This document shows positions 1 to 24,708 of a DNA stretch of 32,000 nt, one piece after another. A model generated the notes under the pieces. The model was not told the origin of the DNA. It made no database searches and saw only the letters and a list, made by a program, of their open reading frames with translations. Both the position numbers and the translations under genes were made by a program. The stretch comes from Planctopirus limnophila DSM 3776 (lineage in GTDB: Bacteria > Planctomycetota > Planctomycetia > Planctomycetales > Planctomycetaceae): the NCBI RefSeq assembly GCF_000092105.1, contig NC_014148.1, positions 570,001-602,000 of the forward strand, given 5' to 3'. The stretch's first letter is position 1, and each line of letters opens with the position of its first letter.

Positions 1-3000
1 TGAAGGTTGTTGATGCCACCAGATGTAACCAGGATCCCGTTGGAACCGTTGGCATCGATAGTATTGTTGACAATCGTGTCAACCGTCTGAGCATTGGTGT
101 TCGGATTGAAGCTCGAACCGGAAATGTTAATTCCGTTCGCTGTGTTCTCGCTGATGGTGTTGTCGGTGATTGACAGTGAATGAGCCACTGAAACGTCAAT
201 ACCGTCATTACCATTTCCAACAATCGTATTGTTGGTGATCACACTGCTGATGAAGGGGGTATCGGTAAGAGCGGAATTGACTGAGAACTGGATCCCGTCG
301 CCGCCGTTGTTCTGGATTGAGTTGGTATCAATATCAACCTGCAGGTCAGCATCCGCCACCAGCTGGGCAGTAATACCGCGGGCCCGGTTGTTATCGATGG
401 TGTTGTTGGTGATCGTGTAGACATCAGCATCGAGATTGCGGGCACGGGCGGTGATATCAATACCGTCGCTGTTGCCCGTGATGATGTTGTTGTCGATCAG
501 CACATTGCGGATGAACGAGTCGGCTTCACGGTCAAAGTGGAGACCATCACCAGCCCCTTCATTGGCGTTGAAGGTCGACCCGGTAATCGAGACGTCGGTG
601 ACATCAGCAAACGATCTCGTATTGAGCGAGAAGCCATGGCTTCCGTTTGCTGAAGAATCGATATTCTGCACCACAATCGAAGGCACGGTCACATTCGGTG
701 CCAGCGTGTTGTCAGTGAGGGTGATTTCGATACCCTCAGCGTTGTTTCCGTTGAACAGTGTTCCGGTGGTGTCGGTCGCATCCCCGATGGTAATGCCACC
801 ATAAGTGGCCGATCCGACACCCCGCAACGAGAGACCCTGGCCAGCGTAACCTGCGACCGTACCAAGCTGTGTGTTCGAGATGGTCGTGCCCGAGATATCA
901 ACCGTAGCCCCGGCGGTGTTGCTGAGAGCCACTGCGACACCCGCCCCGCGGTTGTTGTCGACAATATTGACGAGGCTGGGGTTGGCTCCCGCTTCCATCG
1001 TCAGGTTGACGGCATTGGCATTTGTGCCATTAGCAACAATGTTAATCCCGATACCTGTGTTGTTGTTGACACGGTTGTTGGCAAAGGTTGTTGTGAGCTG
1101 CGAACCATTCTGGACGAGGAAGTTCACGCCTTCGGCACCGTTGGCAGAAATCGAAGCATTATCGGTGAAGGTCATCGTCGCCTGAGCGGTATCCGCCAGG
1201 ACGAGATTCACACCTTGATCGCCGTTGTTATCAATCGTGTTATTCGTGAAAGTCTGGTTCAGGATCGTTGTTGAATTGGCGGCGAGATTGATACCCGCAC
1301 CACCTGTGTTGTTGGTGATGGTGTTCGCATCGTAGACGATATCGATTGAGCTGCCGCTGGTGGGGTTGATCATGCGGATACCGTCGCCGCCGATGTGGCC
1401 GTCGATGGTGTTGTTGCTGATCGTACCGCCGATGGTGCTGTTGACGACGTTGAACTCGATGCCGTTTAGGCCGTTATTGGCAATGCTGGCCAGAGCCGCA
1501 TGGGGTGCCATCGCCTGAGTGACAGTGAAGTTGGTTGTGCGGACAACCTCAGCCGTGGATGAGGGGCTGGATGGAGTGGATCCGCTGGTGATAGCCTGCA
1601 AATAGGGATCGGAGGCGTTGATGTTGACCACATAGCCCTGGTCGGCCAGTGAAGCTGTTGTCGTGCGGCTGATCGGGTTGTCCACACCGGGGTTCAAGAA
1701 GCCGGTCATCAACTCGTTATCGTAAATCGATTCACGCCAGTGAGAATCGCGAGTTCCAGGGCCGCCGGTGTTTTCCACTGGCACGCCAGTTTCGACGTTC
1801 GCGAAGCGGGCGTTGTATTCCGCCGTCGCTTGAGCACCCGTGAAGCGTGGATCGGCTGTGCCGCCACCCTGCAACAGACCCTGGAGGTTCCAGACCGTGC
1901 CAATCCCGAGAACGTGTCCCATCTCATGGAGGATGACATCGAACAGCTGTCCGCTAGCCTCGAGGTTGGCGAGATCGGCACTGTCGAATCGCATGCCGCC
2001 GGAGTACGGGAGATTGCTGCCAGCCCGGATTCCATTAGGTCCGGCTTGGCCGAGAATCCCGCCGACGCCGTCGATATTGGCACCTTCGGCGGAGATTCTG
2101 AGATCGTCGATGATATCGCCGCCACCCAGGTCGACGTCGGCCAGATCACCTGTGATGAGTTGCGACCACCGAGCGGCCGCCTGGGAGAAGATGGCCTGCT
2201 GGGAAGGAGTGAGGCCACCGAGAAGGACGACCTCGATATTAAACTGGCTGATCGGTGTCGGATTGTTCCCACCGAGGCCGTTGGAATCGATGAGGAAGTT
2301 GGCGAAGCTCGAGTTGTCGAGATCGATGTTAATCCCGTCGAGAGTATTCCCGGAGATCGAGCTGTTATTGATGATCTGGAAGTTGTCGGCTGTGGAGTTA
2401 ACCAGAGTCAGGTTGATACCGTTGGCCAGGTTGCTGTCGATTGTGTTGTCGTCAATCACCGAGCCGCTGAAATCACCACCGGTCGTCGCTGTGAGATTCA
2501 CACCGTTGCCGCCGTTGCCGGTGATCGTATTCTCGGCAATGGTCAGCACGAGTGGCCCGGCTGTCGTGGTGGGATCAACGACACTAATGCCGTCGCCAGC
2601 GACTGAGCCCGTGATGGTGTTGCCGCGAAGTTCCACACCGTTCGTGAAGTCAGATCCGTTCACTACGAGCTGAATGCCATTCAGTGCGTTGGCGTCGATG
2701 AGCAGGTTATTGTTGATCGTTGTGGTGGCGACAGTCGAACCGTTACTCAGATCAACGACAACACCGGAACCACCATTCCCACTGATATCGACGTTATCAC
2801 TGATATTGAGCGTGTCGAGGTTCGAGGCATCGAGAGTGACGAGCACACCATCGAGATCGTTGTTGCTGAAGTTGTTCGTGTTGATATCGAGGTTGAGTTC
2901 TGTCCCGGGAGTCGTCGAGTTGAGCAGGCTCACGAGGAGGCCAGCGCCATTTGTCGTCGTGTTCGACTGCGAGTTTGTGACAACAATACCAGCTGTCCCG

Positions 3001-6000
3001 GAGCCGTTGGTGACGGTATCACCGACAATCGCGATCCCTGCTGCATTGCCGGAGGAAGTCCCCGAGGTGTCGGCCAGCATGGAATCGATCACGATTCCAT
3101 CGGCGGTTGGCAAAGTGGCGAGCGTGTTGAGCGCCAGGTCAACCGGCACTGGCAAGCGAGGTTCGGTCACATCGTTGTCGGTACGAGTGAGTACTGAGTA
3201 AGTGTCGGTTCCCACGCCAGGTGGCAAAGCACCGAGAGCCACATTGGTGAGGGCAATGTCGATGGCATTGTCACCGTTGGTGGAGAGAACAGTTGGCCCG
3301 GTGAGGTTGACAGCAGCGGCACCGAGGATGGTATCCAGATTGATGTTTATGCCGTCGAGTGTGTTATTACTGATCGAATCGTAACCTGCGACGGTGACTC
3401 CCGCATTGAGGAGGTTCGTCATCGAAATGTTGACGCCGTTACCAGCGTTGCCATCGATGGTCTGGCCAGCGGCTCCATTGAGCAACACCAGGCCTGTGCC
3501 TGTACCCGTGCCGGTCATATTGACATTCACGCCATCGCCTGGCCCGTTGTTAAACGAACCCGAGAGGCTGACGACTGCAGTATCGACGTTGGTGAACGTG
3601 GCGTTGTATTGACCCAGCGTATTTCCGCTGATGTCGTTGTCGCCTTCCATCAGGAGGACGGCTGTGGTGCCTGCCCCTGTTCCCGCCATCTGCACACCAA
3701 AACCCTGGTTGTTGGTGGCAGTTGATGTATCGATGCGGGCCGTCATGAAGGCGCCGTTCGATGCAGCGAAGTCGTAGCCATCTCCGGTGTTGTTGTTCGA
3801 TTCCGAATCGGCGAAGAGTGTGCGGGCGATGGTGTTCGCACCGTCAGCAGTGACATTCACGCCATCAAAGACACCCGAAGTTCCGTTGCCGTTAAACTGG
3901 CTGCCGGCACTGCGGAAGTTCAACTCACCACCTGACGTAGCCGAAGCCACGAGTCCTTCTTCGCCATTGCCGTTGAACTGCGAGTCGATGGCACCAAAGG
4001 TGGCGACGGAGTTCGCATCGCTCACAGAGACATTGAGGCCGCTGAGCGTCGAACCCGTGAGGAACGAATCCTGGATGACACCGGTAAAGGTTGAACCACC
4101 TGTCGAGGAAACCAGCATGCCTTCAGCACCAGAGCCGTTGACAGTGACATCTTCGAGTACTGTGTTCAGAGTCGAGGCGCCTGAGGCGGTGAAATTCAAT
4201 CCGTTGCCGGTAGCAAGGTTGAAAGTGCCGTTCAGAAGTTCGAAGTTTTGTGTCGCACCGAGCAGCGAGGAGACGACCACTGCGTCCGCACCGGCATTGT
4301 TGCCAGTAAACCCATCGAGCGAGACGTTTGCGATCGATCCCGCACCGGTGGCCACACCGTTAATGGCGTTGACGAGGTTGTTGTCGAAGGATCCGCGAAG
4401 ACCGTTGACGGTCAACGAACTGCCGGAAGCGACGTTGTAAACAAGGCCGCGTTCCTGGGTGGCACCACCATCGCCGATGACATCCGTCAAGCCGAGGCCG
4501 AGCGAAGAAGCATTGGCAAGATCAAGATTGATCGCGTCTTGCAGACCTGTTCCGCCCGCGGCTTGCCCGTTGTTGGAAACATCAACATTTGTGAGTAGTA
4601 CGGTTCCTGTGGCGGCATCAAGAACGGCATTCAGGCCGTTGGCACCGGCACCACCGAACTGTGAGTTGGAGAGGTTGGCCGTGACGTTTGCACCGGCTGT
4701 TGCATCGATGTTGATTCCGTGACGCCCCGCACTGGTGCCATTGATGTTAGCACCCGCCACCGAGATGTTGGCTCCGGCACCTGTACCGATCAGGCTGAGT
4801 GCATCGCGGCCATTGTTCGCCAGATTGGCCCCGTTAAGTGAGAAGGGCGTTAAAGCTGTTCCCAGGATGCCACTGGTTGATTCCAGCCTGATACCATCCA
4901 GAGCGTTGCCCGAAGCAGTAAGCGGCGTCGTAGAAGTGAATGTACCGGTCGCATTGTCGATCGACATGACAATACCGGAACCTGCCGTACTGCCGGTGAA
5001 GGCATTAGCACCGCCGGTCGAGGTGAGTGCGACATCAATATCAGCACCGGATGCACCGGAGATGTTCAGGTTATCCAGTTCGTTGCCAGTGCTGGCCAGG
5101 CCATCCAGCAGCAGGTCAAGATCGGTATCTGCGGCAACGCGGGTACCAAAGCCCTGGTTGTTAGATGTCGTAACTGTCCGAATCGTTCCTGTACCATCCA
5201 CATTCGACAGATAGATTCCACCGGCAGTGGCGGAACCAGCTGTGTTGTTGTTCGTGATATTCAAGTTCTGCAGCAGGAAGTTGGTCGAACCGCCAGGAGT
5301 ATTGGTGATCCCGCTGCCGAGTGCGTCCTGAATGTTAAACGCCGAGACTTCGTTGTTACTAGCTAGAGTGACGACGTTGCCAGCAGTACTGGTGAGTGTG
5401 GGATTGCGACTGGGGTCGTTGAAATCAAACTCGGGCAGAGTGAAGGTCTGCTGTGGGATCGAGAAGGGGCCGTAGTTGGCATAGCCCTCGATCTGATGAA
5501 CCTTGCCTTCGCCCAGCAATCGCTGGAAATCGGTGAGGGTGATGGAATTGTTGTAAGGAGTAACGTTGCTGTTCCCTTGCCGAACGAGAATCAGGTCGGC
5601 AGGAGGCGAATTCGGGGGAAGCTGGGTCAATGGATCTTCATAAGTTCCGGTACCTGCTCCACCGTTGGGATTGGCGCTGTCAACCCATGTAATGAAGTAG
5701 GCTTGATCATCCCGGGGATTGATCACCGGAACAGCAACTGTCGTGTTATAAGTGGTTGTTGAGACACGCCAGTTACGCTGCACAGAAGTCAGCATGCGTT
5801 CCTGAGTATTCAGGCGTGGGAACCAGACAGTGGGCACAAAGCCGGCAAAGCGCCATTCGACATAGGCATTCACACGGGTCTTGAATGTACTGTCGTGAGT
5901 CGCAATCACACCAGCCGTCAGGTCTGTTGACAACTGAGCATCCAGTCGGCCGCGCACACCAGAGACATTGTTTTGTGTCGCATCATAGAAATAACCACCG

Positions 6001-6635
6001 CCATAAGCGCGCAGCCATGACATATTCTGCGTGACAGGGATTCCCAGTTCGAAATCTGCCCCGCGAAGAGCTTCTTCACTCAGGTAGCTACCGGTGAAAT
6101 TGAGCTGGTTCCCTGTATAAAACAGTGTATTAGATAGACCGTTGGGCCCAATCACTTTGTCACTGCTACCTGTTGGAAGGTAGGCGTTGGCCCGCAGATC
6201 AAGGTTCTGACCCAGCGATTCGAAACCAAAACCAATCTGACTGTAGCGATTCGAGTAAGTCGTTTCATCGTTATCGTAGTAGACGTTGGCACCCCAGATG
6301 CGATCTCGACCGGCATCGTAAACACGGCCGATCAAACCCACGTTCACGCCGATCTTACTGGTGTCTGTAATCAGTAATCTCGCCTGTGGAGCAATCAGGA
6401 ACTGCCCGTCATTAAGCAGTGGTGTCAGAGCACCAATCTGCGTAAATCCATGCTGGTAACCGACCCCGCTGTTCGACTGGTTGCGAACATCGAAGTAAGT
6501 GCCATTGAGCATGCCACCACCACTGAAATCCTGCATGGTGGCCACGCCGAGTTCGTCTTCTACAGATTGCGCGACAGCAGGAGCGGCCATTGCCAAGAGA
6601 AGAGCGGACGCCAGGCTGGGTTTTGTAAGTGGCAT
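1..6635 (-). CDS. Giant secreted surface protein, 3'-truncated by the window edge (more than 2211 aa in window). Order: signal peptide, inverse-autotransporter-like beta-barrel, parallel beta-helix (PbH1) passenger with a nested M8-like metalloprotease
   Basis: ATG at 6635..6633 (minus). This frame has no stop down to position 3, which explains why the ORF is not in the track. I hand-translated 6635 to about 4380 and about 3210 to 3. The frame was confirmed at three checkpoints: 6635, the HEMGH motif at 1928..1914, and 59. The N-terminus MPLTKPSLASALLLAMAAPAVA/Q is a classic signal peptide. Most of the remainder is Asn/Gly/Thr-rich repeats such as ITNNTIDNN..GI, NNTIVGNGNDGIDV and ISENTANGINI, typical of right-handed beta-helix repeats. 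Confidence 0.85.
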   Translation of the reverse strand, partial: MPLTKPSLASALLLAMAAPAVAQSVEDELGVATMQDFSGGGMLNGTYFDVRNQSNSGVGYQHGFTQIGALTPLLNDGQFLIAPQARLLITDTSKIGVNVGLIGRVYDAGRDRIWGANVYYDNDETTYSNRYSQIGFGFESLGQNLDLRANAYLPTGSSDKVIGPNGLSNTLFYTGNQLNFTGSYLSEEALRGADFELGIPVTQNMSWLRAYGGGYFYDATQNNVSGVRGRLDAQLSTDLTAGVIATHDSTFKTRVNAYVEWRFAGFVPTVWFPRLNTQERMLTSVQRNWRVSTTTYNTTVAVPVINPRDDQAYFITWVDSANPNGGAGTGTYEDPLTQLPPNSPPADLILVRQGNSNVTPYNNSITLTDFQRLLGEGKVHQIEGYANYGPFSIPQQTFTLPEFDFNDPSRNPTLTSTAGNVVTLASNNEVSAFNIQDALGSGITNTPGGSTNFLLQNLNITNNNTAGSATAGGIYLSNVDGTGTIRTVTTSNNQGFGTRVAADTDLDLLLDGLASTGNELDNLNISGASGADIDVALTSTGGANAFTGSTAGSGIVMSIDNATGTFTSTTPLTASGNALDGIRLESTSGILGTALTPFSLNGANLANNGRDALSLIGTGAGANISVAGANINGTSAGRHGINIDATAGANVTANLSNSQFGGAGANGLNAVLDAATGTVLLTNVDVSNNGQAAGGTGLQDAINLDLANASSLGLGLTDVIGDGGATQERGLVYNVASGSSLTVNGLRGSFDNNLVNAINGVATGAGSIANVSLDGFTGNNAGADAVVVSSLLGATQNFELLNGTFNLATGNGLNFTASGASTLNTVLEDVTVNGSGAEGMLVSSTGGSTFTGVIQDSFLTGSTLSGLNVSVSDANSVATFGAIDSQFNGNGEEGLVASATSGGELNFRSAGSQFNGNGTSGVFDGVNVTADGANTIARTLFADSESNNNTGDGYDFAASNGAFMTARIDTSTATNNQGFGVQMAGTGAGTTAVLLMEGDNDISGNTLGQYNATFTNVDTAVVSLSGSFNNGPGDGVNVNMTGTGTGTGLVLLNGAAGQTIDGNAGNGVNISMTNLLNAGVTVAGYDSISNNTLDGININLDTILGAAAVNLTGPTVLSTNGDNAIDIALTNVALGALPPGVGTDTYSVLTRTDNDVTEPRLPVPVDLALNTLATLPTADGIVIDSMLADTSGTSSGNAAGIAIVGDTVTNGSGTAGIVVTNSQSNTTTNGAGLLVSLLNSTTPGTELNLDINTNNFSNNDLDGVLVTLDASNLDTLNISDNVDISGNGGSGVVVDLSNGSTVATTTINNNLLIDANALNGIQLVVNGSDFTNGVELRGNTITGSVAGDGISVVDPTTTAGPLVLTIAENTITGNGGNGVNLTATTGGDFSGSVIDDNTIDSNLANGINLTLVNSTADNFQIINNSSISGNTLDGINIDLDNSSFANFLIDSNGLGGNNPTPISQFNIEVVLLGGLTPSQQAIFSQAAARWSQLITGDLADVDLGGGDIIDDLRISAEGANIDGVGGILGQAGPNGIRAGSNLPYSGGMRFDSADLANLEASGQLFDVILHEMGHVLGIGTVWNLQGLLQGGGTADPRFTGAQATAEYNARFANVETGVPVENTGGPGTRDSHWRESIYDNELMTGFLNPGVDNPISRTTTASLADQGYVVNINASDPYLQAITSGSTPSSPSSTAEVVRTTNFTVTQAMAPHAALASIANNGLNGIEFNVVNSTIGGTISNNTIDGHIGGDGIRMINPTSGSSIDIVYDANTITNNTGGAGINLAANSTTILNQTFTNNTIDNNGDQGVNLVLADTAQATMTFTDNASISANGAEGVNFLVQNGSQLTTTFANNRVNNNTGIGINIVANGTNANAVNLTMEAGANPSLVNIVDNNRGAGVAVALSNTAGATVDISGTTISNTQLGTVAGYAGQGLSLRGVGSATYGGITIGDATDTTGTLFNGNNAEGIEITLTDNTLAPNVTVPSIVVQNIDSSANGSHGFSLNTRSFADVTDVSITGSTFNANEGAGDGLHFDREADSFIRNVLIDNNIITGNSDGIDITARARNLDADVYTITNNTIDNNRARGITAQLVADADLQVDIDTNSIQNNGGDGIQFSVNSALTDTPFISSVITNNTIVGNGNDGIDVSVAHSLSITDNTISENTANGINISGSSFNPNTNAQTVDTIVNNTIDANGSNGILVTSGGINNL
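1685..2273 (-). other. Domain: leishmanolysin (peptidase M8)-like zinc metalloprotease nested in the beta-helix passenger
   Basis: The in-frame sequence is QFNIEVVLLGGLTPSQQAIFSQAAARWSQLITGDL...DGVGGILGQAGP...MRFDSADL...LFDVILHEMGHVLGIGTVWN...GTRDSHWRESIYDNELMTG. HEMGH lies at 1928..1914. The candidate third His ligand (SHW) lies at 1742..1740, 62 residues after the first His. A Met (ELMTG) follows about 11 residues later, matching the spacing I recall for GP63-type metzincins. Confidence 0.7.
5736..6566 (-). other. Domain: inverse-autotransporter (intimin/invasin IAT_beta)-like outer-membrane beta-barrel plus linker
   Basis: Residues about 24-300 are rich in alternating aromatic/Gly strands. 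They carry strings that resemble the intimin barrel core. KIGVNVGLIGRVYDAGRDRIWGANVYYDNDETTYSNRYSQIGFGFESLGQNLDLRANAYLP compares with intimin QINNGLGWRHF..GINFFFDHDLSRYHSRAGIGAEYWRDYLKLSSNGYL. ALRGADFELGIPV...YGGGYFYD compares with ARPANGWDLRAESWLP...YEQYYGD. The segment ends in VQRNWRV, compared with VDRNNNIVLEY. The domain sits at the N-terminus, ahead of the passenger, which is the inverse topology. Confidence 0.55.
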
Positions 6636-7212
6636 TGAACGATCTCTCCCGTTTACTTGATACGCATAGCCTGCGATCTGGCAGGCCGTGGCCCTCATGC
6701 TGCGAAATTGGCTGCGGAGCGGCTCTTTTTGCCGACTCGAAACCATGGACAACTCAATTCGTGCCCACACGTTCCGTACAGCCACTCTGTCGAGTTATCG
6801 TGAATATTCGGTCTGTAACGATTCTGATCTTGAATACGGTTGAACCGTACCTGAGGGTTTTTCAGGCTGTGAGGGAAGGAGAAGACAAGAATCCGGCGAT
6901 GTTTCGCATTCGATCTCTGGATCGATCCGCAGATTCTGCCAGCGAAGTCCATTAAACCCGTGATTGGCAGATAATGTGCTAAACGCAGGAAGCCTGATCG
7001 CTATGGCCAGCAACTTAATGGACGTATTCAGAGTGATGGCATGCTCGAGCAACTCGGACGATCAACGAGTGGTGCGGCTACAGGGAAGAACCCACAAGGA
7101 CATGGCCAGCATTTTCTATGGCGACGGTTTAGGGCCAACCTATTGGCCTCTTCAACGAACTCTGCGAGAACGCAGTATGCTGGCGGCGTCAGGCAGTGAC
7201 GCTTCAGCGTCA

Positions 7213-7340: not shown

Positions 7341-7889
7341 TTAGGCCGCTGGTTTGGTTTCGGCAGTTTTGGCCTTCTTGGTTTTGGGTGTGGACTGAAT
7401 TGATTTCAGTGTCTCTTTCTGGGCCGCGGTCAAGACACCCTGCAGTTCTGCATCACGTTTGGCTTTGAGAGCCGCCAGTTGCTTTTCCAGGCTCTCAATC
7501 TCGGCTGCATACTTTTTCTGGATGGTATAGACTTGCTCTTTCTGCTCGCCGGAAAGCTCGAGTTTCCCAAAGTTATTGGGCAGACGCGGCGAATCTTCCT
7601 TATCGTCCGCGGGTTTGGCACCAGCTTCGGTCTTGGGCGCCATGGCCTTTTTCGCGCCGTCGGCCTGAGCCAGCAGGTAAGCACCGGAGGCGGCTTGAAT
7701 CCCCAGGGCTCTGGTTTCTGCCTGATCAGCCTGCTGTTCAGAGCTTAGTGCCTGGATTTCGGAGGCAAAGGATGAAGTCGATTGTCCCTGGTGATTCCAG
7801 AAGGCTCCACTCAGGACAGCCCCACTCAAGAGCACTCCGCCTGTCAGTCGCATAAGGCCGGTAACTCGACGCATACTCAATTTCCCCAT
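7341..7889 (-). CDS. Secreted or periplasmic hypothetical protein with a coiled-coil and Spy/CpxP-like LTxxQ-type motifs
   Basis: The track ORF is 7341..8090, but its first 67 residues look like translated non-coding DNA. The internal start MGKLSMRRVTGLMRLTGGVLLSGAVLSGAFW gives a signal/TM segment. The C-terminus reads LSGEQKEQVYTIQKKYAAEIESLEKQLAALKAKRDAELQGVLTAAQKETLKSI followed by a Lys-rich tail. Confidence 0.55.
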   Translation of the reverse strand: MGKLSMRRVTGLMRLTGGVLLSGAVLSGAFWNHQGQSTSSFASEIQALSSEQQADQAETRALGIQAASGAYLLAQADGAKKAMAPKTEAGAKPADDKEDSPRLPNNFGKLELSGEQKEQVYTIQKKYAAEIESLEKQLAALKAKRDAELQGVLTAAQKETLKSIQSTPKTKKAKTAETKPAA

Positions 7890-8086
7890 GATCAATGAGC
7901 GTCTCGCAGAACCTGTTGCCAGTCGAGCGTAGCGGCAAAATGTGCTCATGCTGCGATAATCACTGAACACACTTATCGCATATTTGCCGCTGGTCGATGC
8001 TGACTGCAAGGAAAATCTGCCAGAAAAAGGGAAAAACGGTGAAGGCTCACGTTCTACGCAAATCGGAGAATTGAAATGGAAAACGG

Positions 8087-8542
8087 TCAATTTGCAGTTC
8101 GTGGCAGGATCATGTCCTGGTGCCAGAACTGATTCAGATCGATCATCAACCGATTGAACTTCTCGATATCGAGCGGTTTCGTCAGGTAACCTTGCACCTG
8201 CAACTTCTCTGTTTCGACGAACGTGGCTTCGTCTGTCGAAGCCGTCATGATGACGACAGGGATTGATTTGATCTGTTCTTCAGCACGCAGTTCCGCCAGA
8301 ACATCTCGACCATCGATACCGGGTAAACCCAGATCCAGAAAGATGAGATCAGGCCGGGGGGCTTGTTGATAAATCCCCCGCTGATGGAGAAATTCCAGGG
8401 CCTGCTCACCATCAGTCACCCAGGTGAGTCGATGTCGCAGGTGACTGTTTTTCAAAGCGCCAATAGCGATGCGCGAGAACATCAGGCTGTCTTCGACCAA
8501 CAGGATCTCCATCGGGCGGCCAACGGTTTCTGTATTGATCAT
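8087..8542 (-). CDS. Single-domain response regulator (CheY-like receiver)
   Basis: MINTETVGRPMEILLVEDS...PDLIFLDLGLPGIDG...PVVIMTAS...YLTKPLD carries the acidic pocket, the phospho-acceptor Asp, and the Thr and Lys signatures. The ATG at 8542 is preceded by GGAGG (cgaGGAGGtcaaATG). The longer track ORF (to 8851) adds a non-protein-like N-terminus. Confidence 0.85.
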   Translation of the reverse strand: MINTETVGRPMEILLVEDSLMFSRIAIGALKNSHLRHRLTWVTDGEQALEFLHQRGIYQQAPRPDLIFLDLGLPGIDGRDVLAELRAEEQIKSIPVVIMTASTDEATFVETEKLQVQGYLTKPLDIEKFNRLMIDLNQFWHQDMILPRTAN

Positions 8543-9190
8543 TTGACCTCCTCGCGAATGAATCACCTGCCTTAAGGATTTTCGCTTGGAAGATCCTGTT
8601 CCAGCAAGTGACCTGCGAGAAAATCCCTGCTCAAAAGGACGAATACTGGTCTGACCAGAATTGCCAAAAGCCAGTGATGTTTCGTCTGTTGTTGACTGAC
8701 CACTTCTGGCGAGCGGGAGATGAGCCCCATGAAATGACCACGTGCGGAGTCCCTCCTGATTCCTGTGCCTCGTGGGCACCGGGTCAGTACGGTCGTCATT
8801 CTGAGGAAAATCGTCGGTGTCAGGTCGATAGATGTCGATCATTATGTACACAATTCAAAAAGCGAAAAGAGTCAGCGAAAGCGATTCGTCGGCGAAAATG
8901 GAGTTGTTGAGAAAGAATTCCGGTACTCACGAGAGCTCATTTCTGAGAGGCTTTACAGTCTGGGAGGGAAAACCCTTTCAGCAAACGAATTTGTCAGGTG
9001 AGTTTGTCCTGCAGAATCCTTCCGACACAAAACGCCGTTGGTTGTTCTCATGAGCAGGTTTGCGGAAATCAAAATGCTTCAGGCAATCAACACCAAGGAT
9101 TGACACCTGACGAACTGTGAAAGTTCGCAGCGAGAATCTATCCGTCTGTTTCTGACGAGCGACCTTTGTCATGAAAATCATGGAATCTGT

Positions 9191-9739
9191 GTGATGCCCG
9201 ACGAACATCAACAGAAACGCACGATACAAAACAAGCTCAATCAACCGGTCGAGTTGAATGCCAGGCGACACACTTCATTGAAGCTGTGGATTTCTCGCTG
9301 GGGACTACGTCTCTCTGCATGTCGATGGTGTGTCGCTTTCTGGCAGAGATCTCCTCATTCACCATCATCTCACCGGACTCTGAACATCGGGGAGCAGGGC
9401 GAAGCCAGAGCGGAGAAGTACTTGAAGGAGTTGGGATATCAGATTCTCGCCAGAAATCTACGCACCCGACTGGGTGAGATTGATCTTCTGGCACTCGAAG
9501 GCGAAACGATTGTCTTCATCGAGGTGAAAACCCGTAAGTCGGATGCGCGCGGCCGACCAGAAGAGGCGATTCATCCGCGTAAACAAAAACAGCTGTCGAG
9601 AGTGGCGATGGCGCTCTTGAAGTCGAAAGGGTGGTTGCATCGACAATCAAGAATCGATGTCATCACAATTACGGGAGAGCCAGAAAGCCCAGATTGTGAG
9701 CTCAGGCACTATCGCCATGCCTTTCCTTCGGTACTCTGA
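9191..9739 (+). CDS. YraN/UPF0102 family protein (restriction-endonuclease-like fold); start codon uncertain
   Basis: The core GEQGEARAEKYLKELGYQILARNLRTRLGEIDLLALEGETIVFIEVKTRKS...GRPEEAIHPRKQKQLSRVAMALL....RIDVITI matches the YraN pattern (GE..A..YL...GY.IL.RN.R...GEIDLI.....LVFVEVK.R). The conserved core begins near 9383. There is no in-frame ATG/GTG/TTG between 9197 and the core. Confidence 0.7.
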   Translation: MMPDEHQQKRTIQNKLNQPVELNARRHTSLKLWISRWGLRLSACRWCVAFWQRSPHSPSSHRTLNIGEQGEARAEKYLKELGYQILARNLRTRLGEIDLLALEGETIVFIEVKTRKSDARGRPEEAIHPRKQKQLSRVAMALLKSKGWLHRQSRIDVITITGEPESPDCELRHYRHAFPSVL

Positions 9740-9778: not shown

Positions 9779-10183
9779 CTAACGTAATGGCAAAAGATCG
9801 GTTTCCAGGTCAAAGCGGGAATCGTCTTCCTCCCGGCCTTCCTGTGGCTTCCAGTTCACCAGGTCACTGAAGTCAAGAAAGCCATCGTCCAGTTCGTCTT
9901 CATCGGTCGTCGATGAATAGTGATTCGAACCTGCACTCAAGTGAGGCTGTGTAAAAAAAGTCTCACCCGTGCTTGAGTCACCGAATGGAACATCCTCAGT
10001 CGATGATTCGTTGGTCGAATCATCTTCAGGATTAAGCCATAGCGTTTCGATGCGTCGGGTTTCCGGCTGCCGGGTCTGAAGAATCTCAAGCCTGACGAAG
10101 GCTGGCTGAATCTCAATCACTCGAATGATCGTATCATCACCAACAATGAGACACTCGTTCACAGCTCGTGAAAACTCAAGCAT
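9779..10183 (-). CDS. Divergent CsrA-like RNA-binding domain protein with a long acidic C-terminal tail
   Basis: MLEFSRAVNECLIVGDDTIIRVIEIQPAFVRLEILQTRQPETRRIETL aligns by eye with CsrA ([47 protein letters not shown]). It is followed by about 85 residues rich in D/E/S/T. An alternative start lies 4 codons upstream (10195). Confidence 0.6.
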   Translation of the reverse strand: MLEFSRAVNECLIVGDDTIIRVIEIQPAFVRLEILQTRQPETRRIETLWLNPEDDSTNESSTEDVPFGDSSTGETFFTQPHLSAGSNHYSSTTDEDELDDGFLDFSDLVNWKPQEGREEDDSRFDLETDLLPLR

Positions 10184-10194
10184 CCTGAACCTCA

Positions 10195-10434
10195 TCAGTT
10201 GTATTCCGGTATCACTTCCACACGACCTGCGAGTATGAGCCAGGCATTTCGCGTCCGAGTGATGTCATCAATTGAGGGGTCATTCTGCCGACGGACATCA
10301 ACTCGCACAAGTCGGAAAATCATCTTGGCGCATAGTTCCGTAAACCTTCTCAACGTCAAGAAGTACCGCAACATTTCCCAAGATTTTTCTGCTGAAAAGC
10401 CAGTGAAATTGCCCTTGCATTGAAGACTCATCAC
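10195..10434 (-). CDS. Hypothetical small protein (79 aa); weak call
   Basis: This is an ORF only. Its TGA (10197..10195) overlaps the upstream ATG (10195..10193) of the CsrA-like ORF. I recognised no family. Confidence 0.25.
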   Translation of the reverse strand: MMSLQCKGNFTGFSAEKSWEMLRYFLTLRRFTELCAKMIFRLVRVDVRRQNDPSIDDITRTRNAWLILAGRVEVIPEYN

Positions 10435-10596: not shown

Positions 10597-13500
10597 CTAT
10601 CGATTGAGGAGTTGCCCAGGGCTCAGCCTGCGGGCTGCAAATGCCGGCTTGAGAGAGGCATCCATCAGAGAATCCACTCCTTCCAGTCGTGCCAGTGTCT
10701 GGCCTTGTCGATTCAGGATTTCCACATCCATGCTGACGACATGGGCTGTCGTCTTCTGGATGCGGCACGTGATGATCACACCTTCGGCAGGCCACTTTCT
10801 TTGGAGAATTTCAATGCGGCGAATTCCAGTCGGTAACGACGGCATGCCACGCTGTTGCCAAGCCCAGACAATCGCCATCTGAAAGATCACATCCAAGACA
10901 AGGGGATCAATCAGCCAACTGTGACGATGAGGTTTATGCATCCACAACCGAGGGGCCTCTGCCACGCGCGAGATCACGCTGAGTTGTCGTTCATTGCAGG
11001 TCAGAACCTGCTCGATGCCCTGCATGAGAGGGCCATGAAACAACCATTCCTGATACAGATCAGCGGGCAGGATTGAACGATCAAACGAGTCTCCTCGCAA
11101 TTCGTTGGTGGTGGTTACGGGAGTTTGATCGATGGTCTGCCCCGTCATGATGACGTCTGCTGTGGCGTGCAGCAGCGTTCGTCCAGCCGCTTCGCTGGTC
11201 AACCGGGCTTGCCATGGTTGAACCCATCCACTGGTGTGGCGGGGGCTGTCAGCTTCGGCTAAAGGCTCCAGTTGAACCTTGAGGTGAGCGAGTTCATGAG
11301 AACTGAGGCGGACACCCTTCATCACTTTGACGTTCTCAAAACCACTCAGTGCCATCCCCGGGGAAAGATGTGCTGCCCCATGAGCCATCCATTCGAGCAT
11401 CATCGCCAGCGGAAGGACCGCTTTTCCTCCAATCACATGATCATCCAGAAAAGGATGGTCATTGACTGACAGTAATCGATCAAACCCCTGTCGACTGGCC
11501 ACGACTGGCTTAGTCTTTTCAATGGGCGTTTGTGACTCAACGAGTGTTGCCGCAGCCGTCGGTTGGACAGGAGCCAGGACGACGATTTCGACCGGCCGCT
11601 CGCTCGACTGGCAATACTCGCTGGCAAAAATCGAAGCACCTTCCCGCAGGGGAATCAATCCCACCTGTTCTTTGGAAAAAATGGCTCGCAACTGATCATT
11701 CACCATCCCGCCATCCCATGGCCCCCAGTTCCACGAGGTCACATGACACTCGGGATGCTGCGCTGCCCATCCCCGCGCCTGCTTATTGAGAATTTCATTG
11801 GCAATCGCGTAGTCGGCCTGTCCCGTTCGGCCGTATCGACCGGTGAACGAAGAGAATAGGCCCAGCATGCGCAATTGAGATGGATCAATAGCGGCAAGGA
11901 GATGCTTCAGCCCCTGAACCTTCACACGCATGACATCGTCAAATTGCTCCCGGGTCTTACGCTCAATCCGCGCATCCGCAATCACACCCGCCCCGTGAAT
12001 CAAACCCCGGATGGGGCCCATAGTGGCCACAATCTCTGCCAACGCGTGGCGGACACTGGAGGGATTCGAAACATCCACCCGTTGATAAACGGCTCGCACA
12101 CCAGCCTTCGCAAAACGATCAAGATTGGTACGGAGTTCCTGCTGCGCCAATCGTTGACGGGCTTCATCCGCTACCATTCGAGGTGTCCAGCCGACGGGAT
12201 TTTCGCTCATGATCTGCTGACGGAATTCGATTTCCGTCAGTGGTCGGTCATTCTCGCTGGTCGTCGCAGAAAGTTCAGGAGGCGGAGTTCGCCCCAATAG
12301 CACCATGGTTGTCCCCAGGGCTTTGCCGAATTCAAGGGCGGCTTCCATCGTCACGCCGCGGGCACCACCTGAGACAACGACGAGATCGCCAGTAGACAGA
12401 ACGGGGTTCGCTTGGGCAGTTGCTCCCTGCACATCGAGCGTGTTCCATTCCACCTGAACTTCTACGGGAGATCCTCCCGGAAACTGCGCGATCCCCGTCT
12501 CGAGGGGGCCTGTGGCCAAAAGTTCTTCCACAAGCTGCGGTACAGCCTCTGTGTGGGAAAGTTGTCCTATGTCGAACACTCTCGCAGTGACTTCGGGCCA
12601 TTCGTGCCGAGCGGTCTTGATGAGCCCGGTCAATCCGCCCGATTCTGGAGCGACGATGTGGCGAGGAGCGTTGGAGTCCAAAACTCCAAAGTGGCCATTG
12701 AGACGGACAACGCCGCCTAACAATCGTCTTTCACCGGCCACAACATCTTTGCGAAGTGCCGACGAAACCTGCTGCAGCCATTCGAGGTTCTGCCACAGGT
12801 TTGTCAAAGGGTCCTGGGCCGCTGTACTTGGGAGAAGGATCAAGCCGCTCAGAACATCGGGAACACTAACCACCGACGCACCTTGTATGGTGGCTGTCTG
12901 AGGCACAATTCGAGAGGTAATGCCCTCGTTGATCAGAGCACTGGCGAGTGCGCGGGAAAGACCGCTCTCTCCGAGGCCATCATCAGTGATCCAGACTTCG
13001 TGCCGGAATACATCCTTAGTGCGGCGTTCGCTGGCAGGTGCGAGAGCCACTGTTTTCAAAAGGCCACGCTGGAGTGTGTGTGGTTCCGGGAAGCGAACCT
13101 CACGGGGCATGGCCTGTGTGCTGCCAGCAATGGCAGTCGGGGGAAGCTCATTCTCTTTGTGAGTGGATTCAACAATGAGTCCGAATGAGCCTAGTGCATC
13201 AGATGAAGTGTTTTTTTTTAACTCATACGTGCTAACGGGAATGCCTGCAGCAGTGGTCTCCGGATAAGCCGCAACGACATCGGCGAGTGTCTGGAGCGAG
13301 CCCAGTTGTTCTGGAGAAACGACGGGCAGGTTCGGGAATCGTTCCTGCATGGCACTGAGAATCTCGACACGCTTGATCGAATCGATCCCCAGGTCGTGAT
13401 CAAGACTCATCCGCAGCTGTAGCATTTCCTTGGGGTAACCCGTTTTTTCGGCGACGACCTGCAGCAAGGCATTGGCGAGATCAGATCCGCCAGAATGTCC

Positions 13501-16500
13501 GTTTGAACCATTGGTTCCATGGGAAGCTGCTGGCATGCTCACGGAAGGAGAGGCCGAACTCTGAATCACTCCCGAGGAAGCCGCGATGCCCGCGGACGGC
13601 ACTGGTTCGCCCGGGTAGGCAGCGACGACATCGGCGAGAGTCTGAAGCGAGCCAAGCTGTTCTGGAGACACAACAGGGAGGTTCGGGAAACGTTCCTGCA
13701 TGGCACTGAGAATTTCGACCCGCTTGATCGAATCGATCCCCAGATCATGATCAAGACTCATCCGCAGTTGCAGCATTTCCTTGGGGTACCCCGTCTTTTC
13801 TGCGACCACTTCTAATAGTGAGGCAGCCAGACCGCTGGATTCGCTGACAGAACTCGTCTGCGATCGGCTGGAAGTCGGTACTGGTGCGGTCAGTTCCTGG
13901 GGAATCTTCGCAACTGCTGGTGCAGTACCTGTTGTCGATTGCGGATAGGCTGCGACGACATCGGCAAGAGTCTGAAGCGAGCCGAGCTGTTCTGGAGACA
14001 CGGCGGGCAGGTTCGGGAAACGTTCCTGCATGGCACTGAGAATTTCGACGCGCTTGATCGAATCGATTCCCAGATCATGATCAAGACTCATTCTCAGTTG
14101 CAGCATCTCCTTGGGGTAGCCGGTCTTTTCAGAGACCACTTCCAAAAGTGACGCTGCCAGTTCGGAGTTCGTCTTTCCGGCTGGAGGTGCCATAACTGGC
14201 ACAGGAGCTGGTACTGTGACTGGAACTGCTGCTGGTACCACTGCTGAGACCACAGGTTGAGCGGGTGTGATCATGGGTGGGGCCGGTGGCAAGACGGCGA
14301 CTGGCGGTATAGCCAAGATCGTTGTGGCGGGCACCGCAGGTGTCACTATGGGTGGCATTGCCGGTGGCAGAGGTGCTGCCAGTGCCTGGGTCGCAGGGCT
14401 GGTCATTGAACCATTGGGGCTGGCGGCTGGCACATGCTGAATGAGTTGTGTCAACAACTGTAAAGCCTGCTGCTGCTGCGCGAGAAATGTCTGATGTGCC
14501 AGAGCGGTCTGCTGCTGAATGGCCTGCAGTGTCTCAAGATAGGATGCCACGGGGGAAGAATCCTTGATCTGAACGGGATGAGTGAGCGGTTGTGTTTGGT
14601 TGATCTGTGCGGTGTTCGTGATGCTGTTGGTAACGAAACGATCTTCCATAGAATTCAGTGAAAATTCGGAAGACTTAGCTGATGCGCCTGTCGATGAAGA
14701 TGCCGTAGTGTGTGAACTTAACTCAGGTGACATCGATGACTTTGGTGGTGTCAATGAAGCATGCTGTTGAGCAACATCAGAAGAGCTTTGAGGCATCGAA
14801 CCAATAGCGTTGGTCAAATTGGCTCTCGGCAGTTCAGAGCTCGTTGCCGGGATTTGAACCGGCTCAGCCAACTTCGTTTTGACAGGCAGAGGTGGCTTGG
14901 GCTTGGTGTAGTTGGCACCACAGATCGGAATGGTGCCTTCCCGTGGTTCGGGGAGATGGTGATTACTCCAGAGTGTGGGGGCATCCCAATGCGCGAGTTG
15001 AAGATCGTGACCACTCACAGCCAGTTGGCCCAGTAACCAGGCCAGATCCCATTCACCTCGTCGGCGTCCTTGTGAACTATCAAGAGCCAGAGCCTGATGC
15101 GGTTGCCCACTCAGGATCGAAGAGACCAGCCCTGTCAACACGTGGCCGGGGCCCACTTCGATAAACGTGCGCACCCCTGACTGATACATCGCGCGAATCT
15201 CATCCAAAAAATGGACAGGCCTGGCCAGTTGACTGGCCAGCAGTTCGCGGGCAGCGTCTGCTTCCTGTGGATAGACTTTGGCCGATGAGTTGGCGTAAAC
15301 GGGAATCGATCCGCCATGAAAGGGAATCTGTTCGAGTGCCGGACGGAATTTGTGGGCCGCCTGTGCGACCAGCGGGCTATGGAATGCCGCAGCCACCGCC
15401 AACTGTTTGCCTCGCAGATTCCGCTGGCCCAGCAATTCACCAGCCCGGGCAATCTGATCCAGCCGACCCGAGATCACGACTTGTGAAGGGCTGTTATGGT
15501 TGGCAATTACCAGTTCGAGATTCAATTCGCGAAGTGCCTGCTCGACAACTTCACTTGAAGCATGGATTGCGAGCATGCCACCCGGCTGAAGTTCTCCTTC
15601 CGCCATGAGTTGCCCGCGCAGCATACTGAGTCGATAAAGCTCTTCAGGCGAAAATCGGCCCGCCGCACACAGAGCGGTCAATTCCCCATAGCTATGCCCA
15701 GCCACAGCGGTTGGTCGAATGCCAAACCGTTGAAGAACTCTCCATCCTCCCAGGCTGACGGCGCCTAAGGCAGGCTGTGCGACATCCGTGGCTTTCAGCT
15801 GGGTAGTGGCCAAAGCACGCGCTTCGTCATTCCAGACGTTAACAGGGTAAATTGCGTCCGATAACGTCCAGGAAAAGGCCCGATTTCCCGTTCGAGGTGC
15901 ATCCGCAAAGGCATGATTGGCAGCAGCCAGCACATCCCGCATTTCGGGAAAGAGACAAGCCAGATCGCGGAGCATTCCCGGATACTGTGATCCCTGTCCG
16001 GGGAATAAAAGTCCGATCGATCCAGAGGCGAATCCTCGCGAATAGGCGACTCCTTCGGGAAGTGTCCATTGCACAGGTGCTTCGAGAGGAGACTGCCGCG
16101 TGCGGCCGATCTGCTCGATCGCCCGTGTTGCCGGTGTTGGCCAGTCGGTCGAGGAAAGATCAGCCACCATGGCTAGTCGGCAGAGATCCTGAGCACGAAA
16201 CTGGCTCCGCAATTGTGATGCTAGCTGGCGAACTGTTTTTGGTGAACGACGAGCCTGCGCGAGAAACTCATGGATCGTTCGAATGAGCTGATCGTCATCA
16301 GGGCCACTGAACGTAAGCAGTTGAATCTGACCATCCCACCCCGGTTGGCGTGGCGGGCGGCATTCAGCCGGTGCTTCTTCCATCACACAGTGAAAGTTAC
16401 TTCCTCCAAAGCCGAACGCACTGACTCCTGCCCGCCGCTTGCGATTCAGGCCCGGCAGCCAAGGGCGGCTCTGAATGTTGACATAGAACGGGCTTTGACG

Positions 16501-17841: not shown

Positions 17842-17853
17842 TTATTCTTCAGG

Positions 17854-17889
17854 ATCTGGACAGGATGCAAAATCTGGACAGGATGCAAA
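17854..17889. repeat. Perfect 18-bp tandem direct repeat (2 copies) in the 70-bp spacer between the ER and megasynthase genes
   Basis: ATCTGGACAGGATGCAAA occurs at 17854..17871 and again at 17872..17889. The repeat ends 12 nt upstream of the megasynthase ATG (17841). Confidence 0.95.
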
Positions 17890-17911
17890 CTATCGATTGT
17901 GATCACAGCCA

Positions 17912-20986: not shown

Positions 20987-22108
20987 TCAGATGTTTTCAG
21001 CTTTCAGAAGCATGGCTTCAATCGCAAGTCCTGGTCCAAAACCGAGGGCGACAACAGGGCCATTGATTCTTTCTTCACGCATTCTGTCGAGTACGAACAG
21101 AATCGTTGAAGAGGACATGTTGCCGTGCTTTTCGAGCACTTCACGGGCCGGGGCCACATGGCTGTTGGAAAGTGAAAGTGCGGCCAGGCAGGAATCGAGA
21201 ATACGCGGACCACCCGGGTGAATGGCCCAACCAGCGATATCCTTGATGGTGAGTCCTTCGCGAGCAAGGAAAGGAGTCAGCCAGCTGACGAGGTTTTCCT
21301 CAATCAGTGCAGGAACTTTTTGCGAGAGAGTCATTTCGAAGCCATGATTTCCAATCCGCCAGCTCATCGCGAACTTGGTGTTGGGCACCAGGAACGAGCC
21401 ACTGCGGATCAGTTGATAGGCTGGCTTTCGATCCTCAATCTTCGAAGATCGGCAAATGACGGCTCCAGAACCATCTGCAAAGAGTGCATTGGCAATCACT
21501 TTGTCGGTTGTCCAGCCGTAATGGTGGTGCAGGCTGCAGAGTTCGACAGAGCACATCAGAACGACGGCATCGGGATCAGAAGCAGTGTATCCATGAGCGA
21601 CACGCAGACCGTTAAATGAGCCGTGGCAACCCATGAAGCCGACATGAGTTCGTGAGGTGTTGCGGTTGAGGCCCAGTTCTTCAATCAGGCCCATGTCCAC
21701 GCCGGGAGAATTAAATCCACTGCAGGAAACCGTCACTATGTGCGTGATCTCTCTGGCGTCCTGGCCTGCATCCCGGAGTGCAGCGACAGATGATTTGATG
21801 GCCAGTGGTAAGGCATGCTGCTCGTATTGCCTCATGCGTTCCTGCGTGGAGGGCCCGTAATCTTCTTCGTTCTCGCGTTCGTAAAAGAAGAATTCATCTC
21901 GATCGTCGGCTCGAATGAAATCTTCTGGTTCCGCACCGACTAGAACAGAGCCGCGATGTTTGACGCCTGATCCCTGATAGATCATTTCCATGACCCGGCG
22001 ATGTTCATCGGAGTCGCAACAGGTGTTGCTCATGGCAGAGTAAGCATCCATTTGCGGGATTCGTGATGCGGGAGCAGCAGTCCCGATTCCAGAAATGAGC
22101 ATTGCCAT
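20987..22108 (-). CDS. Type III polyketide synthase (chalcone/stilbene synthase superfamily)
   Basis: MAMLISGIGTAAP start. Catalytic Cys in HIVTVSCSGFNSPG (codon 21724..21722), His in WAIHPGGPRIL, Asn in HGNMSSSTILF, and the C-terminal GFGPGL motif. The track ORF begins 9 codons earlier (22135); starts at 22108 or 22102 fit the family N-terminus better. Confidence 0.9.
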   Translation of the reverse strand: MAMLISGIGTAAPASRIPQMDAYSAMSNTCCDSDEHRRVMEMIYQGSGVKHRGSVLVGAEPEDFIRADDRDEFFFYERENEEDYGPSTQERMRQYEQHALPLAIKSSVAALRDAGQDAREITHIVTVSCSGFNSPGVDMGLIEELGLNRNTSRTHVGFMGCHGSFNGLRVAHGYTASDPDAVVLMCSVELCSLHHHYGWTTDKVIANALFADGSGAVICRSSKIEDRKPAYQLIRSGSFLVPNTKFAMSWRIGNHGFEMTLSQKVPALIEENLVSWLTPFLAREGLTIKDIAGWAIHPGGPRILDSCLAALSLSNSHVAPAREVLEKHGNMSSSTILFVLDRMREERINGPVVALGFGPGLAIEAMLLKAENI

Positions 22109-22593
22109 AATCACTAACTCCGAAAAAAAGCACATGAGAAACGAAAACTTCGAGATTGTCTGGTGGACGCAACCAGCTCAGGAGAGAGACTGATATTTGC
22201 CAGCCGGGCAAGGTGAAGACTGAGTCAATACGACTTTTGAAAACCAGCCCCAGTGTAATCGCGATTTTCTTCGCAATCACTGTAAACATTCCAGATTCTC
22301 TCATTTGCCAGAAAATCTGATCTTTATCAACTATCGACTTGCCAAGTGTGAAGACCCGCAGAATTCGCGAGTCAAAACCACATCAACTGGCATGAAGGCT
22401 GCCTACATGGCACAACCGGCGTAATGCGAAGCACCAGCAAAGAGATAGATCCCTGTCGAACAGAGGTCAACGCAATCACAGAAGGTACTTAGGGGTCGTA
22501 AGTGCATGTTCTTGAGTTTGAAGGTTTGGAACATGCATTTCCTGCGAGGGTTACGTTGAAACAAAATCTTCGCAGAAATTTTAAAACAAGTGT

Positions 22594-24546: not shown

Positions 24547-24708
24547 CAAGTCATCGCACTGTTTGTGAGATAGTAAGTGATACATGGAATCTGAGTCTGC
24601 TACGCGATTTTTGTTTACCGGTTTCTACTTTGCTAAGTGATAGTGATGAGTCTGTGGGATGCTGGTAAGTAACAGGTTGTTTCCTGCGTGTCTGTGTGAG
24701 GGGTATCG

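Follow-up and report, generated by a model that had tools for sequence, protein, structure and literature searches.

The gene that runs off the start of a 32,000-nucleotide stretch of Planctopirus limnophila DSM 3776 (assembly GCF_000092105.1, contig NC_014148.1, positions 570,001 to 602,000 of the forward strand; this whole stretch is hereafter called the window) is predicted to encode a giant inverse autotransporter of type Ve, whose passenger is a beta-helix carrying a zinc-protease module. The assignment is based on a signal peptide, a match to the IAT_beta profile, the modeled fold of the barrel, and an inverted order of the parts, in which the signal peptide is followed by the barrel (residues 47-263 of 2615) and then by the passenger. 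According to our analysis, the protein probably exports this passenger from the N- to the C-terminus as a beta-helical rod of about 30 nm, which would display the protease at the cell surface. Its role would likely be surface proteolysis and/or attachment in a surface-associated freshwater heterotroph.

Open Reading Frame and Gene Identity

Direct translation of the minus strand from window position 6635 to position 3 yields 2211 open codons with zero stops. An earlier note, prepared from the sequence alone, had described an uninterrupted frame of more than 2211 codons that was missing from the list of open reading frames (ORFs), and had set a stop or frameshift between positions 4380 and 3210 beforehand as a refuting observation; that stretch is open, and the frame is absent from the list because it leaves the window at its start and the lister omits such frames. 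The product is identical in 2211 of 2211 residues to ADG66306.1 (WP_013108737.1, UniProt D5SPS6) of P. limnophila DSM 3776, a protein of 2615 residues, so that the frame continues past the window edge, as had also been claimed, and its last 404 residues fall outside. GenBank names this protein "Parallel beta-helix repeat protein", and the RefSeq name already describes an inverse barrel with a beta-helix passenger.

An exhaustive search of representative sequences with residues 1-350 as the query recovered a protein of 2617 residues, with 99% identity over those 350 residues and 95.7% over 2211. The orthologue of P. ephydatiae is colinear without gaps over the 2211 codons (95.7% amino-acid and 90.5% nucleotide identity), and the ratio of nonsynonymous to synonymous substitution rates (dN/dS) between the two is 0.068, with values of 0.03-0.08 in each segment. 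Full-length orthologues of 2615-2617 residues are present in two Planctopirus genomes and several assemblies, and a scan of genome contigs with the single protein gave three loci, all in Planctopirus. The low dN/dS points to a gene under constraint rather than to a frame that repetitive DNA happens to leave open; on these comparisons, window 6635 to 3 is read as a real gene under strong purifying selection. The sequence is repetitive and rich in Gly, Asn, and Thr, and the opposite strand holds several ORFs of 100-288 codons, as might be expected if the long frame were an artefact or a decaying gene kept open by compositionally biased DNA. However, the dN/dS value over ungapped codons, the full-length orthologues, and the distinct functional domains with conserved catalytic residues leave this explanation with next to no probability, and it can be regarded as effectively refuted already.

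The start codon is placed at the ATG at position 6635, whose Met is shared by the orthologues and which has a Shine-Dalgarno-like GGGAGAG 8 nt upstream. The frame stays open for 37 further codons 5' of this ATG (window 6636-6745, minus strand) and reaches another ATG, and the longer start is used by one Joint Genome Institute gene call (P0156, 2654 residues). The ATG at 6635 is favored over the upstream one because of the signal peptide and the Shine-Dalgarno-like sequence.

Few cysteines are a recognized trait of passengers that cross the narrow pore of an autotransporter unfolded. Judging from the neighboring genes, a protein of 2615 residues should include about 28 cysteines, and the P. limnophila protein has none.

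Signal Peptide, Beta-Barrel, and Linker

The N-terminal part of the protein comprises the following features:

6567-6635, minus strand: start codon and Sec-type signal peptide, residues 1-23 (MPLTKPSLASALLLAMAAPAVA, followed by QS), read directly from the translation
6498-6566, minus strand: short mature N-terminus, residues 24-46, of low confidence (predicted local distance difference test, pLDDT, below 50 for residues 1-42 in the AlphaFold2, AF2, model)
5847-6497, minus strand: predicted inverse-autotransporter beta-barrel, residues 47-263 (PF11924, AF2, Foldseek, and family profile)
5760-5846, minus strand: linker, residues 264-292, containing a helix (278-282) and the motif RMLxxVQRNWR (AF2 and conservation)

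The signal peptide proposed in the earlier note was recognized by eye from its basic n-region, hydrophobic core, and A-V-A cleavage motif, and the AF2 model places a helix at residues 4-14. A Pfam scan found no LysM or other periplasmic domain N-terminal to the barrel, and residues 24-46 gave no match.

A barrel resembling that of intimin and invasin had been suggested at positions 5736-6566 (residues 24-300), and the barrel delimited here lies within that span. When the N-terminal 350 residues were scanned alone, IAT_beta (PF11924) matched residues 47-157 with 41.4 bits against a cut-off of 22.3 (E 1.7e-10), and the NCBIfam scan of the barrel gave sub-threshold matches alone (Inv, Ilp, and YchO/YchP). 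Searches of the PDB with the single sequence reached invasin at E 0.011, and with the family profile they reached the invasin beta-domain at 5.8e-13 and intimin at 6.7e-6. The barrel shares 15-19% sequence identity with intimin and invasin.

Structure prediction supports the same assignment. AF2 gave no usable model of residues 1-380 from a single sequence (pLDDT 31); the model of residues 1-470, built on an alignment of 33 relatives, had a mean pLDDT of 88 and a predicted template modeling score of 0.75, with most of residues 47-263 above 90. This model consists of long strands over residues 47-263, a short helix at 278-282, and a strand-rich domain behind it. The three best Foldseek matches in the PDB were intimin (5g26 and 4e1s) and invasin (4e1t), with E values of 6e-12 to 1e-11 and TM scores of 0.74-0.76 normalized by target length; the next match, at 4e-5, was about seven orders of magnitude worse, and the classical autotransporter barrels of EspP, BrkA, and Hbp were found at E values of about 1e-4 with TM scores of 0.33-0.40. 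The earlier note had also named the lack of an IAT_beta match, together with a non-barrel fold, as a refuting outcome; the match exceeds its cut-off, the predicted N-terminal fold is a barrel, and residues 47-263 are modeled as a transmembrane barrel of the intimin/invasin type.

Few stretches of the protein are as conserved as the linker motif RMLxxVQRNWR, in which R287 is invariant in 33 sequences and both R280 and R287 are invariant in 8; in the family profile, this motif aligns weakly with the linker at the C-terminal end of the invasin crystal construct. Residues 264-292 are presumed to run back through the barrel pore. It is this presumption that leaves room for another explanation, in which the barrel would be a mere outer-membrane anchor and the passenger would remain in the enlarged periplasm, its protease digesting imported macromolecules; P. 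limnophila and its relatives have such a periplasm, where polymers taken up by the cell are apparently broken down (PMC12673574, citing Boedeker 2017 and Lonhienne 2010). However, the barrel and linker match secretion-competent domains of intimin and invasin, the linker motif is conserved, the total depletion of cysteine suits passage through a pore rather than a stay in an oxidizing periplasm, and a periplasmic protein would have no need of an autotransporter barrel. The periplasmic explanation is therefore considered improbable, and export through the barrel is preferred.

Classical (type Va) and two-partner (type Vb) secretion were also considered and rejected. For type Va, no C-terminal autotransporter barrel (PF03797) was detected by Pfam in either the C-terminal 314 residues or the whole protein. 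For type Vb, Pfam found no two-partner secretion (TPS, hemagglutination activity) domain in the protein, and the neighboring genes include no Omp85-type or POTRA protein.

Predicted Beta-Helix Passenger

Counts of shared domains refer to 160 family sequences, and counts of sizes and passengers to the best 150 relatives of the barrel. The passenger, apart from its protease module, is divided as follows:

5256-5759, minus strand: conserved barrel-proximal passenger domain, residues 293-460, read as the start of the beta-helix (family conservation, AF2, and DUF1565 in a relative)
3246-5255, minus strand: putative beta-helix repeat block I, residues 461-1130 (hhalign and periodicity)
3036-3245, minus strand: non-repeat spacer, residues 1131-1200, with homologues in 12 of the 160 sequences and no domain match
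2271-3035, minus strand: putative beta-helix repeat block II, residues 1201-1455 (hhalign 99.2%, weak Pfam match, and periodicity)
1506-1565, minus strand: Ser/Thr/Pro-rich connector, residues 1691-1710, read directly
3-1505, minus strand: beta-helix repeat block III, residues 1711-2211, continuing to about residue 2380 beyond the window (Pfam)
Outside the window: distinct C-terminal domain of 235 residues, residues 2381-2615, read from the identical full-length protein (P0155)

The strongest evidence comes from block III, whose residues 1711-2211 match Beta_helix (PF13229) with 74.3 bits against a cut-off of 25.9 (E 1.1e-20) and NosD with E 1.4e-8; the whole protein scores 46.2 bits for Beta_helix. 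Block II gave a weak match (21.1 bits, at about residues 1330-1440), and piecewise Pfam scans of residues 290-1130 gave nothing at E values up to 10, as did PDB sequence searches with residues 430-1130 and 1711-2211. Comparison by hhalign with the Beta_helix-positive block 1750-2210 matched residues 460-800, 800-1130, 1201-1455, and 2210-2380 with 95-99% probability in several staggered registers (99.2% for block II), while the controls, namely residues 300-460, the protease module, and the C-terminal domain, were negative. A period of 27-29 residues was detected in the helix blocks but not in the controls, with block II showing a 28-residue period (z 4.9). From these sequence comparisons, the passenger is read as a right-handed parallel beta-helix in three blocks interrupted by the protease module.

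No Big_1, Big_2, Intimin_C, or other Ig-like or lectin domain was found anywhere in the protein with Pfam, which agrees with the earlier proposal of a beta-helix in place of Ig-like domains. That proposal had assigned more than 1900 residues to PbH1-type repeats; among the 1919 residues that follow the linker within the window, about 1590 can be retained as beta-helix (293-1130, 1201-1455, and 1711-2211), and the spacer (1131-1200) and the metzincin module (1456-1690) have to be taken out. The latter had been missed altogether.

The barrel-proximal domain has homologous regions in 69 of the 160 sequences. Its own sequence gave no Pfam match, and AF2 predicts it with confidence as strand-rich, with short regular strands from about residue 410. 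In one relative (P0173), the equivalent region (its residues 300-479) matches DUF1565, a beta-helix family, and positions 422-616 of the family profile match solved beta-helix enzymes (E 3e-4 to 1e-3), including GH110, mannuronan C5-epimerases, and an alpha-1,3-glucanase. Because of these two observations, the helix is read as beginning right behind the linker. The C-terminal domain, common to 17 of the 160 relatives, has no Pfam match and is not beta-helix-like according to hhalign.

Embedded Metalloprotease Module

Between blocks II and III, the passenger is interrupted by a module with the motifs of a metzincin:

1566-2270, minus strand: metzincin zinc-protease module, residues 1456-1690 (Pfam M8/M10 and motif conservation)
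1914-1928, minus strand: HEMGH, residues 1570-1574, the metzincin HExxH
1731-1748, minus strand: DSHWRE, residues 1630-1635, with the third zinc-ligand His, H1632 (metzincin motif)
1704-1718, minus strand: NELMT Met-turn, residues 1640-1644, with M1643 (metzincin motif)

Scanned alone, the module matches Peptidase_M8 with 26.4 bits (cut-off 21) and Peptidase_M10 with 24.7 bits (cut-off 24), and in the whole-protein scan both fall just under their cut-offs. Weak sequence matches in the PDB include MMP-12 and karilysin. Of the family sequences, 17 carry the module, always at an internal position, and each of them retains the HExxH, the distal His, and the Met-turn. These motifs identify residues 1456-1690 as a conserved leishmanolysin-type zinc-protease module with its putative catalytic residues intact.

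Between P. limnophila and P. ephydatiae, the module is more divergent (dS 1.16, dN 0.068) than its flanking blocks (dS 0.16-0.58, dN 0.004-0.027), and despite this divergence its dN/dS is 0.059. This pattern suggests that the protease cassette was exchanged through recombination with a divergent allele.

A protease within the rod raises the question of whether the distal part stays on the cell. The export route could be the same and the metalloprotease, or another protease, could cut the rod, releasing a soluble or fiber-forming distal part and leaving the barrel as a one-shot exporter. Cleavage frees many type Va passengers, although the characterized type Ve passengers stay attached (PMC6555100). 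In the present protein, release would be favored by the intact, conserved catalytic motifs and by the Ser/Thr/Pro-rich connectors on the flanks of the module, and it is opposed by the failure to identify a cleavage motif; the blocks on either side of the protease are equally constrained (dN/dS 0.04-0.07), which is compatible with either fate. Overall, release appears unlikely, and display of the protease on an attached rod is preferred.

The way in which such domains are scanned affects their annotation. IAT_beta, Peptidase_M8, and Peptidase_M10 pass their cut-offs only in scans of isolated domains, and they are lost or sub-threshold in the full, low-complexity protein. Because the whole-protein scan loses IAT_beta, the precomputed Pfam annotation of the orthologue contains Beta_helix only, and the GenBank and UniProt labels remain as bland as "beta-helix repeat protein". 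Proteins of this kind are thus easily mislabeled as plain "beta-helix repeat proteins".

Barrel Family and Relatives

The exhaustive search for barrel relatives returned 2809 representative clusters at E <= 1e-3, 1096 at <= 1e-10, and 109 at <= 1e-30, and a word-indexed homologue search with the barrel returned five fragments only and did not recover the protein itself. The barrel is N-terminal in all 150 best relatives, starting within the first ~210 residues, and many of these proteins are large (115 of at least 1000 residues, 66 of at least 2000, and 17 of at least 3000). The beta-helix profile of the P. limnophila protein matches 105 of the 115 large relatives (at least 1000 residues), over a median of 51% of their length, and 79 of the 115 have two cysteines or fewer. 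Source names, available for few relatives, were Planctomycetaceae, Planctomycetota, and Planctomycetales; the "Candidatus Saccharimonas" label of one metagenome-assembled genome is probably due to a mis-binned contig.

Passengers across the family are mosaic. In two giant relatives that share the barrel, a NIDO (nidogen-like) domain sits in the middle of the helix (P0034, residues 3360-3501; P0010, residues 1849-2025). Since the NIDO domain occupies the place that the protease has in the P. limnophila protein, the beta-helix appears to be a scaffold for interchangeable cassettes.

More speculatively, and with a rather small chance of being correct, the intimin-type barrel might be the main exporter for a large class of giant-gene products of Planctomycetota, namely beta-helical rods of 2000-4500 residues that would pass from N to C through a 12-stranded pore, serve as scaffolds for internal cassettes (M8, NIDO), and perhaps make up some planctomycete surface fibers. 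If so, type Ve secretion would handle beta-helical cargo far bigger than that of any characterized member, and the function and export route of some planctomycete giant genes could be tested in a genetically tractable species.

Proposed Secretion Mechanism

The proposed mechanism follows the secretion model of intimin and invasin (reviewed in PMC6555100). After export by Sec, the beta-barrel assembly machinery, perhaps together with the translocation and assembly module, would insert the barrel into the outer membrane; with the linker bent into a hairpin inside the pore, the passenger would then thread outwards, still unfolded, from its N- to its C-terminus. The barrel-proximal start of the helix would be the first part to emerge, and further coils could stack on it one by one, acting as a folding ratchet that drives export. 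The same ratchet logic is seen in the TPS domain of filamentous hemagglutinin (FHA) in type Vb secretion, and it is the mirror image of the C-terminal autochaperone of type Va. From about 1750 helix residues, at about 28 residues and 0.48 nm per coil, the rod would be about 30 nm long, with the metalloprotease about two-thirds of the way out and the tip domain at the far end.

Several observations weigh against this interpretation. DSSP counts 14 segments between residues 47 and 263, compared with the 12 strands of an intimin/invasin-type barrel; the IAT_beta match covers just profile positions 45-149 of 279 and vanishes when the whole protein is scanned. Residues 461-1455 were called beta-helix by profile comparison of a sequence rich in Gly, Asn, and Thr, a composition able to inflate scores, and a passenger of about 2300 residues is rather large for a monomeric barrel of 12 strands.

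The fused passenger also bears on whether it is the cargo at all. Two-partner inverse autotransporters were proposed by Heinz et al. 2016 (PMC4943183), and the barrel could by this precedent be a ZirT-like translocator or pore for a separately encoded substrate, with the fused beta-helix not being its cargo. Such proteins, however, carry a short extension at the C-terminus and have a substrate encoded alongside them. In the P. limnophila protein, a single frame joins about 2300 residues to the barrel, and the neighboring genes suggest no substrate: upstream lie genes for a response regulator and for hypothetical proteins, and downstream those for another hypothetical protein and for an extracytoplasmic function (ECF) sigma factor. 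This alternative is thus very improbable, even less likely than retention in the periplasm, and export of the fused beta-helix by its own barrel is maintained as the proposed mechanism.

The protein would offer a natural test of whether folding drives type V secretion in the N-to-C as well as in the C-to-N direction, and of the limit that a 12-stranded barrel sets on the size of its cargo. It would also give a concrete export route to some planctomycete giant genes, and it could illustrate the exchange of cassettes, whether enzymatic or adhesive, inside a beta-helical scaffold.

Genomic Neighborhood

A very strong hairpin resembling an intrinsic terminator (window 7261-7223, minus strand; 16-bp stem, nine G-C pairs, and a T-run) lies just 3' of an ORF of 249 codons (7341-8090). 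Since this terminator closes the preceding gene, the giant gene is read as heading its own transcription unit. Farther upstream are a response-regulator receiver (8087-8851, minus strand), a UPF0102/NERD nuclease-like gene (9191-9739, plus strand), and a small ORF with a sub-threshold CsrA match (9779-10195, minus strand); no link of these upstream neighbors to the autotransporter was evident. Directly 3' of the orthologue in P. ephydatiae, in a region outside the window (locus L001, 18220-20300), are genes for a hypothetical protein of 282 residues, an ECF sigma factor, and a protein of 177 residues. The last of these could be an anti-sigma factor, and the region might be a regulatory neighborhood.

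The remainder of the window includes a lipid or polyketide cluster (10597-19618 and 20987-22135, minus strand) composed of a 2414-residue type I synthase (ketosynthase, acyltransferase, three acyl carrier proteins, ketoreductase, and dehydratase), an enoyl reductase similar to PfaD (combining NMO with the FabD helical insert), and, from the chalcone/stilbene synthase family, a type III polyketide synthase. The cluster resembles polyunsaturated fatty acid synthase or alkylresorcinol-type pathways. On the plus strand, a MacB-type export set (23386-26747) consisting of an FtsX/MacB_PCD permease, an ABC ATPase, and an HlyD-family membrane-fusion protein adjoins rpoC (26978-31336).

Comparison with Known Systems

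To our knowledge, no member with an inverse barrel and a beta-helix passenger has been studied experimentally. The literature search found no paper on ADG66306.1/WP_013108737.1 or on autotransporters in P. limnophila. The design itself is nevertheless already known, as shown by the RefSeq name and by Heinz et al. 2016 (PMC4943183), where a group with an invasin_beta domain and a C-terminal pectin-lyase-fold domain (IPR011050) is described, a parallel with pertactin is drawn, and the group is used to argue for the functional equivalence of inverse and classical barrels. A Big/Ig-like passenger with a lectin-like tip is typical of the characterized members, but according to Heinz et al. 2016 it does not define the family. 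Planctomycetes are listed among the phyla with inverse autotransporters (PMC6770984), and their giant genes are well known, with roles only guessed at (PMC5177795 and PMC12673574). The idea in the earlier note that such a protein would be an unusual hybrid can therefore not be upheld, all the more as a beta-helix is the norm among the large relatives described above. What the present analysis adds is the embedded M8-type protease and its exchange for NIDO in relatives, a helix that starts at the linker, the total absence of cysteine, and a measure of how large the family is.

The planctomycete envelope is diderm in our reading of the field. The earlier note had placed the protein in a lineage with an atypical envelope; the lineage is indeed planctomycete, but the envelope argument is dated, and the controversies over the planctomycete cell plan and peptidoglycan are mostly resolved (2025 review, PMC12673574).

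Compared with intimin (EaeA of enterohemorrhagic Escherichia coli) and invasin (InvA of Yersinia; PDB 4E1S, 4E1T, and 5G26), the P. limnophila protein has the same succession of a signal peptide, a barrel of the same Pfam family and predicted fold, a linker, and a C-terminal passenger, and presumably the same N-to-C hairpin secretion. It differs in carrying a beta-helix and protease of about 2300 residues, whereas intimin and invasin carry three to five or more Big/Ig-like domains with a lectin-like cap, in the absence of a periplasmic LysM domain, and in its host, which is an environmental planctomycete and not an enteric pathogen. The group of Heinz et al. 2016 has an identical domain architecture, an inverse barrel delivering a pertactin-like beta-helix; the account given of it there is one paragraph and a figure inset, with no experiments and no taxa named in the text, and this account is silent on an embedded M8-type protease, NIDO cassettes, giant size, and a planctomycete expansion.

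With the type Va autotransporters, such as pertactin and the serine protease autotransporters of Enterobacteriaceae (SPATEs) EspP and Hbp, the protein shares a barrel, presumably of 12 strands in the P. limnophila protein as well, a beta-helical stalk bearing a protease module, a cysteine-poor passenger, and vectorial folding outside the cell, the last of these being proposed for the P. limnophila protein. However, the domain order and direction of secretion are reversed, an autotransporter barrel at the C-terminus is lacking, and a metzincin in the middle of the stalk stands in place of the N-terminal serine protease of SPATEs. The metzincin in turn resembles leishmanolysin (GP63, MEROPS M8) and the M10 matrixins in its HExxH, in a third His about 60 residues further on in an SHW context, and in its NELM Met-turn, although the scores are marginal (24-26 bits) and the alignment covers the catalytic core only; it is a 235-residue insert in a beta-helix rod, whereas these enzymes are free-standing elsewhere.

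The type Vb protein FHA of Bordetella forms a very long right-handed beta-helix that is exported from N to C; its N-terminus is the first part to emerge and nucleates folding. The same shape and order of emergence are proposed for the P. limnophila protein. The machinery is different, since FHA is exported by the separate Omp85-type, 16-stranded FhaC and has an N-terminal TPS domain, whereas the P. limnophila protein has no TPS domain and is predicted to carry an intimin-type barrel fused to its passenger.

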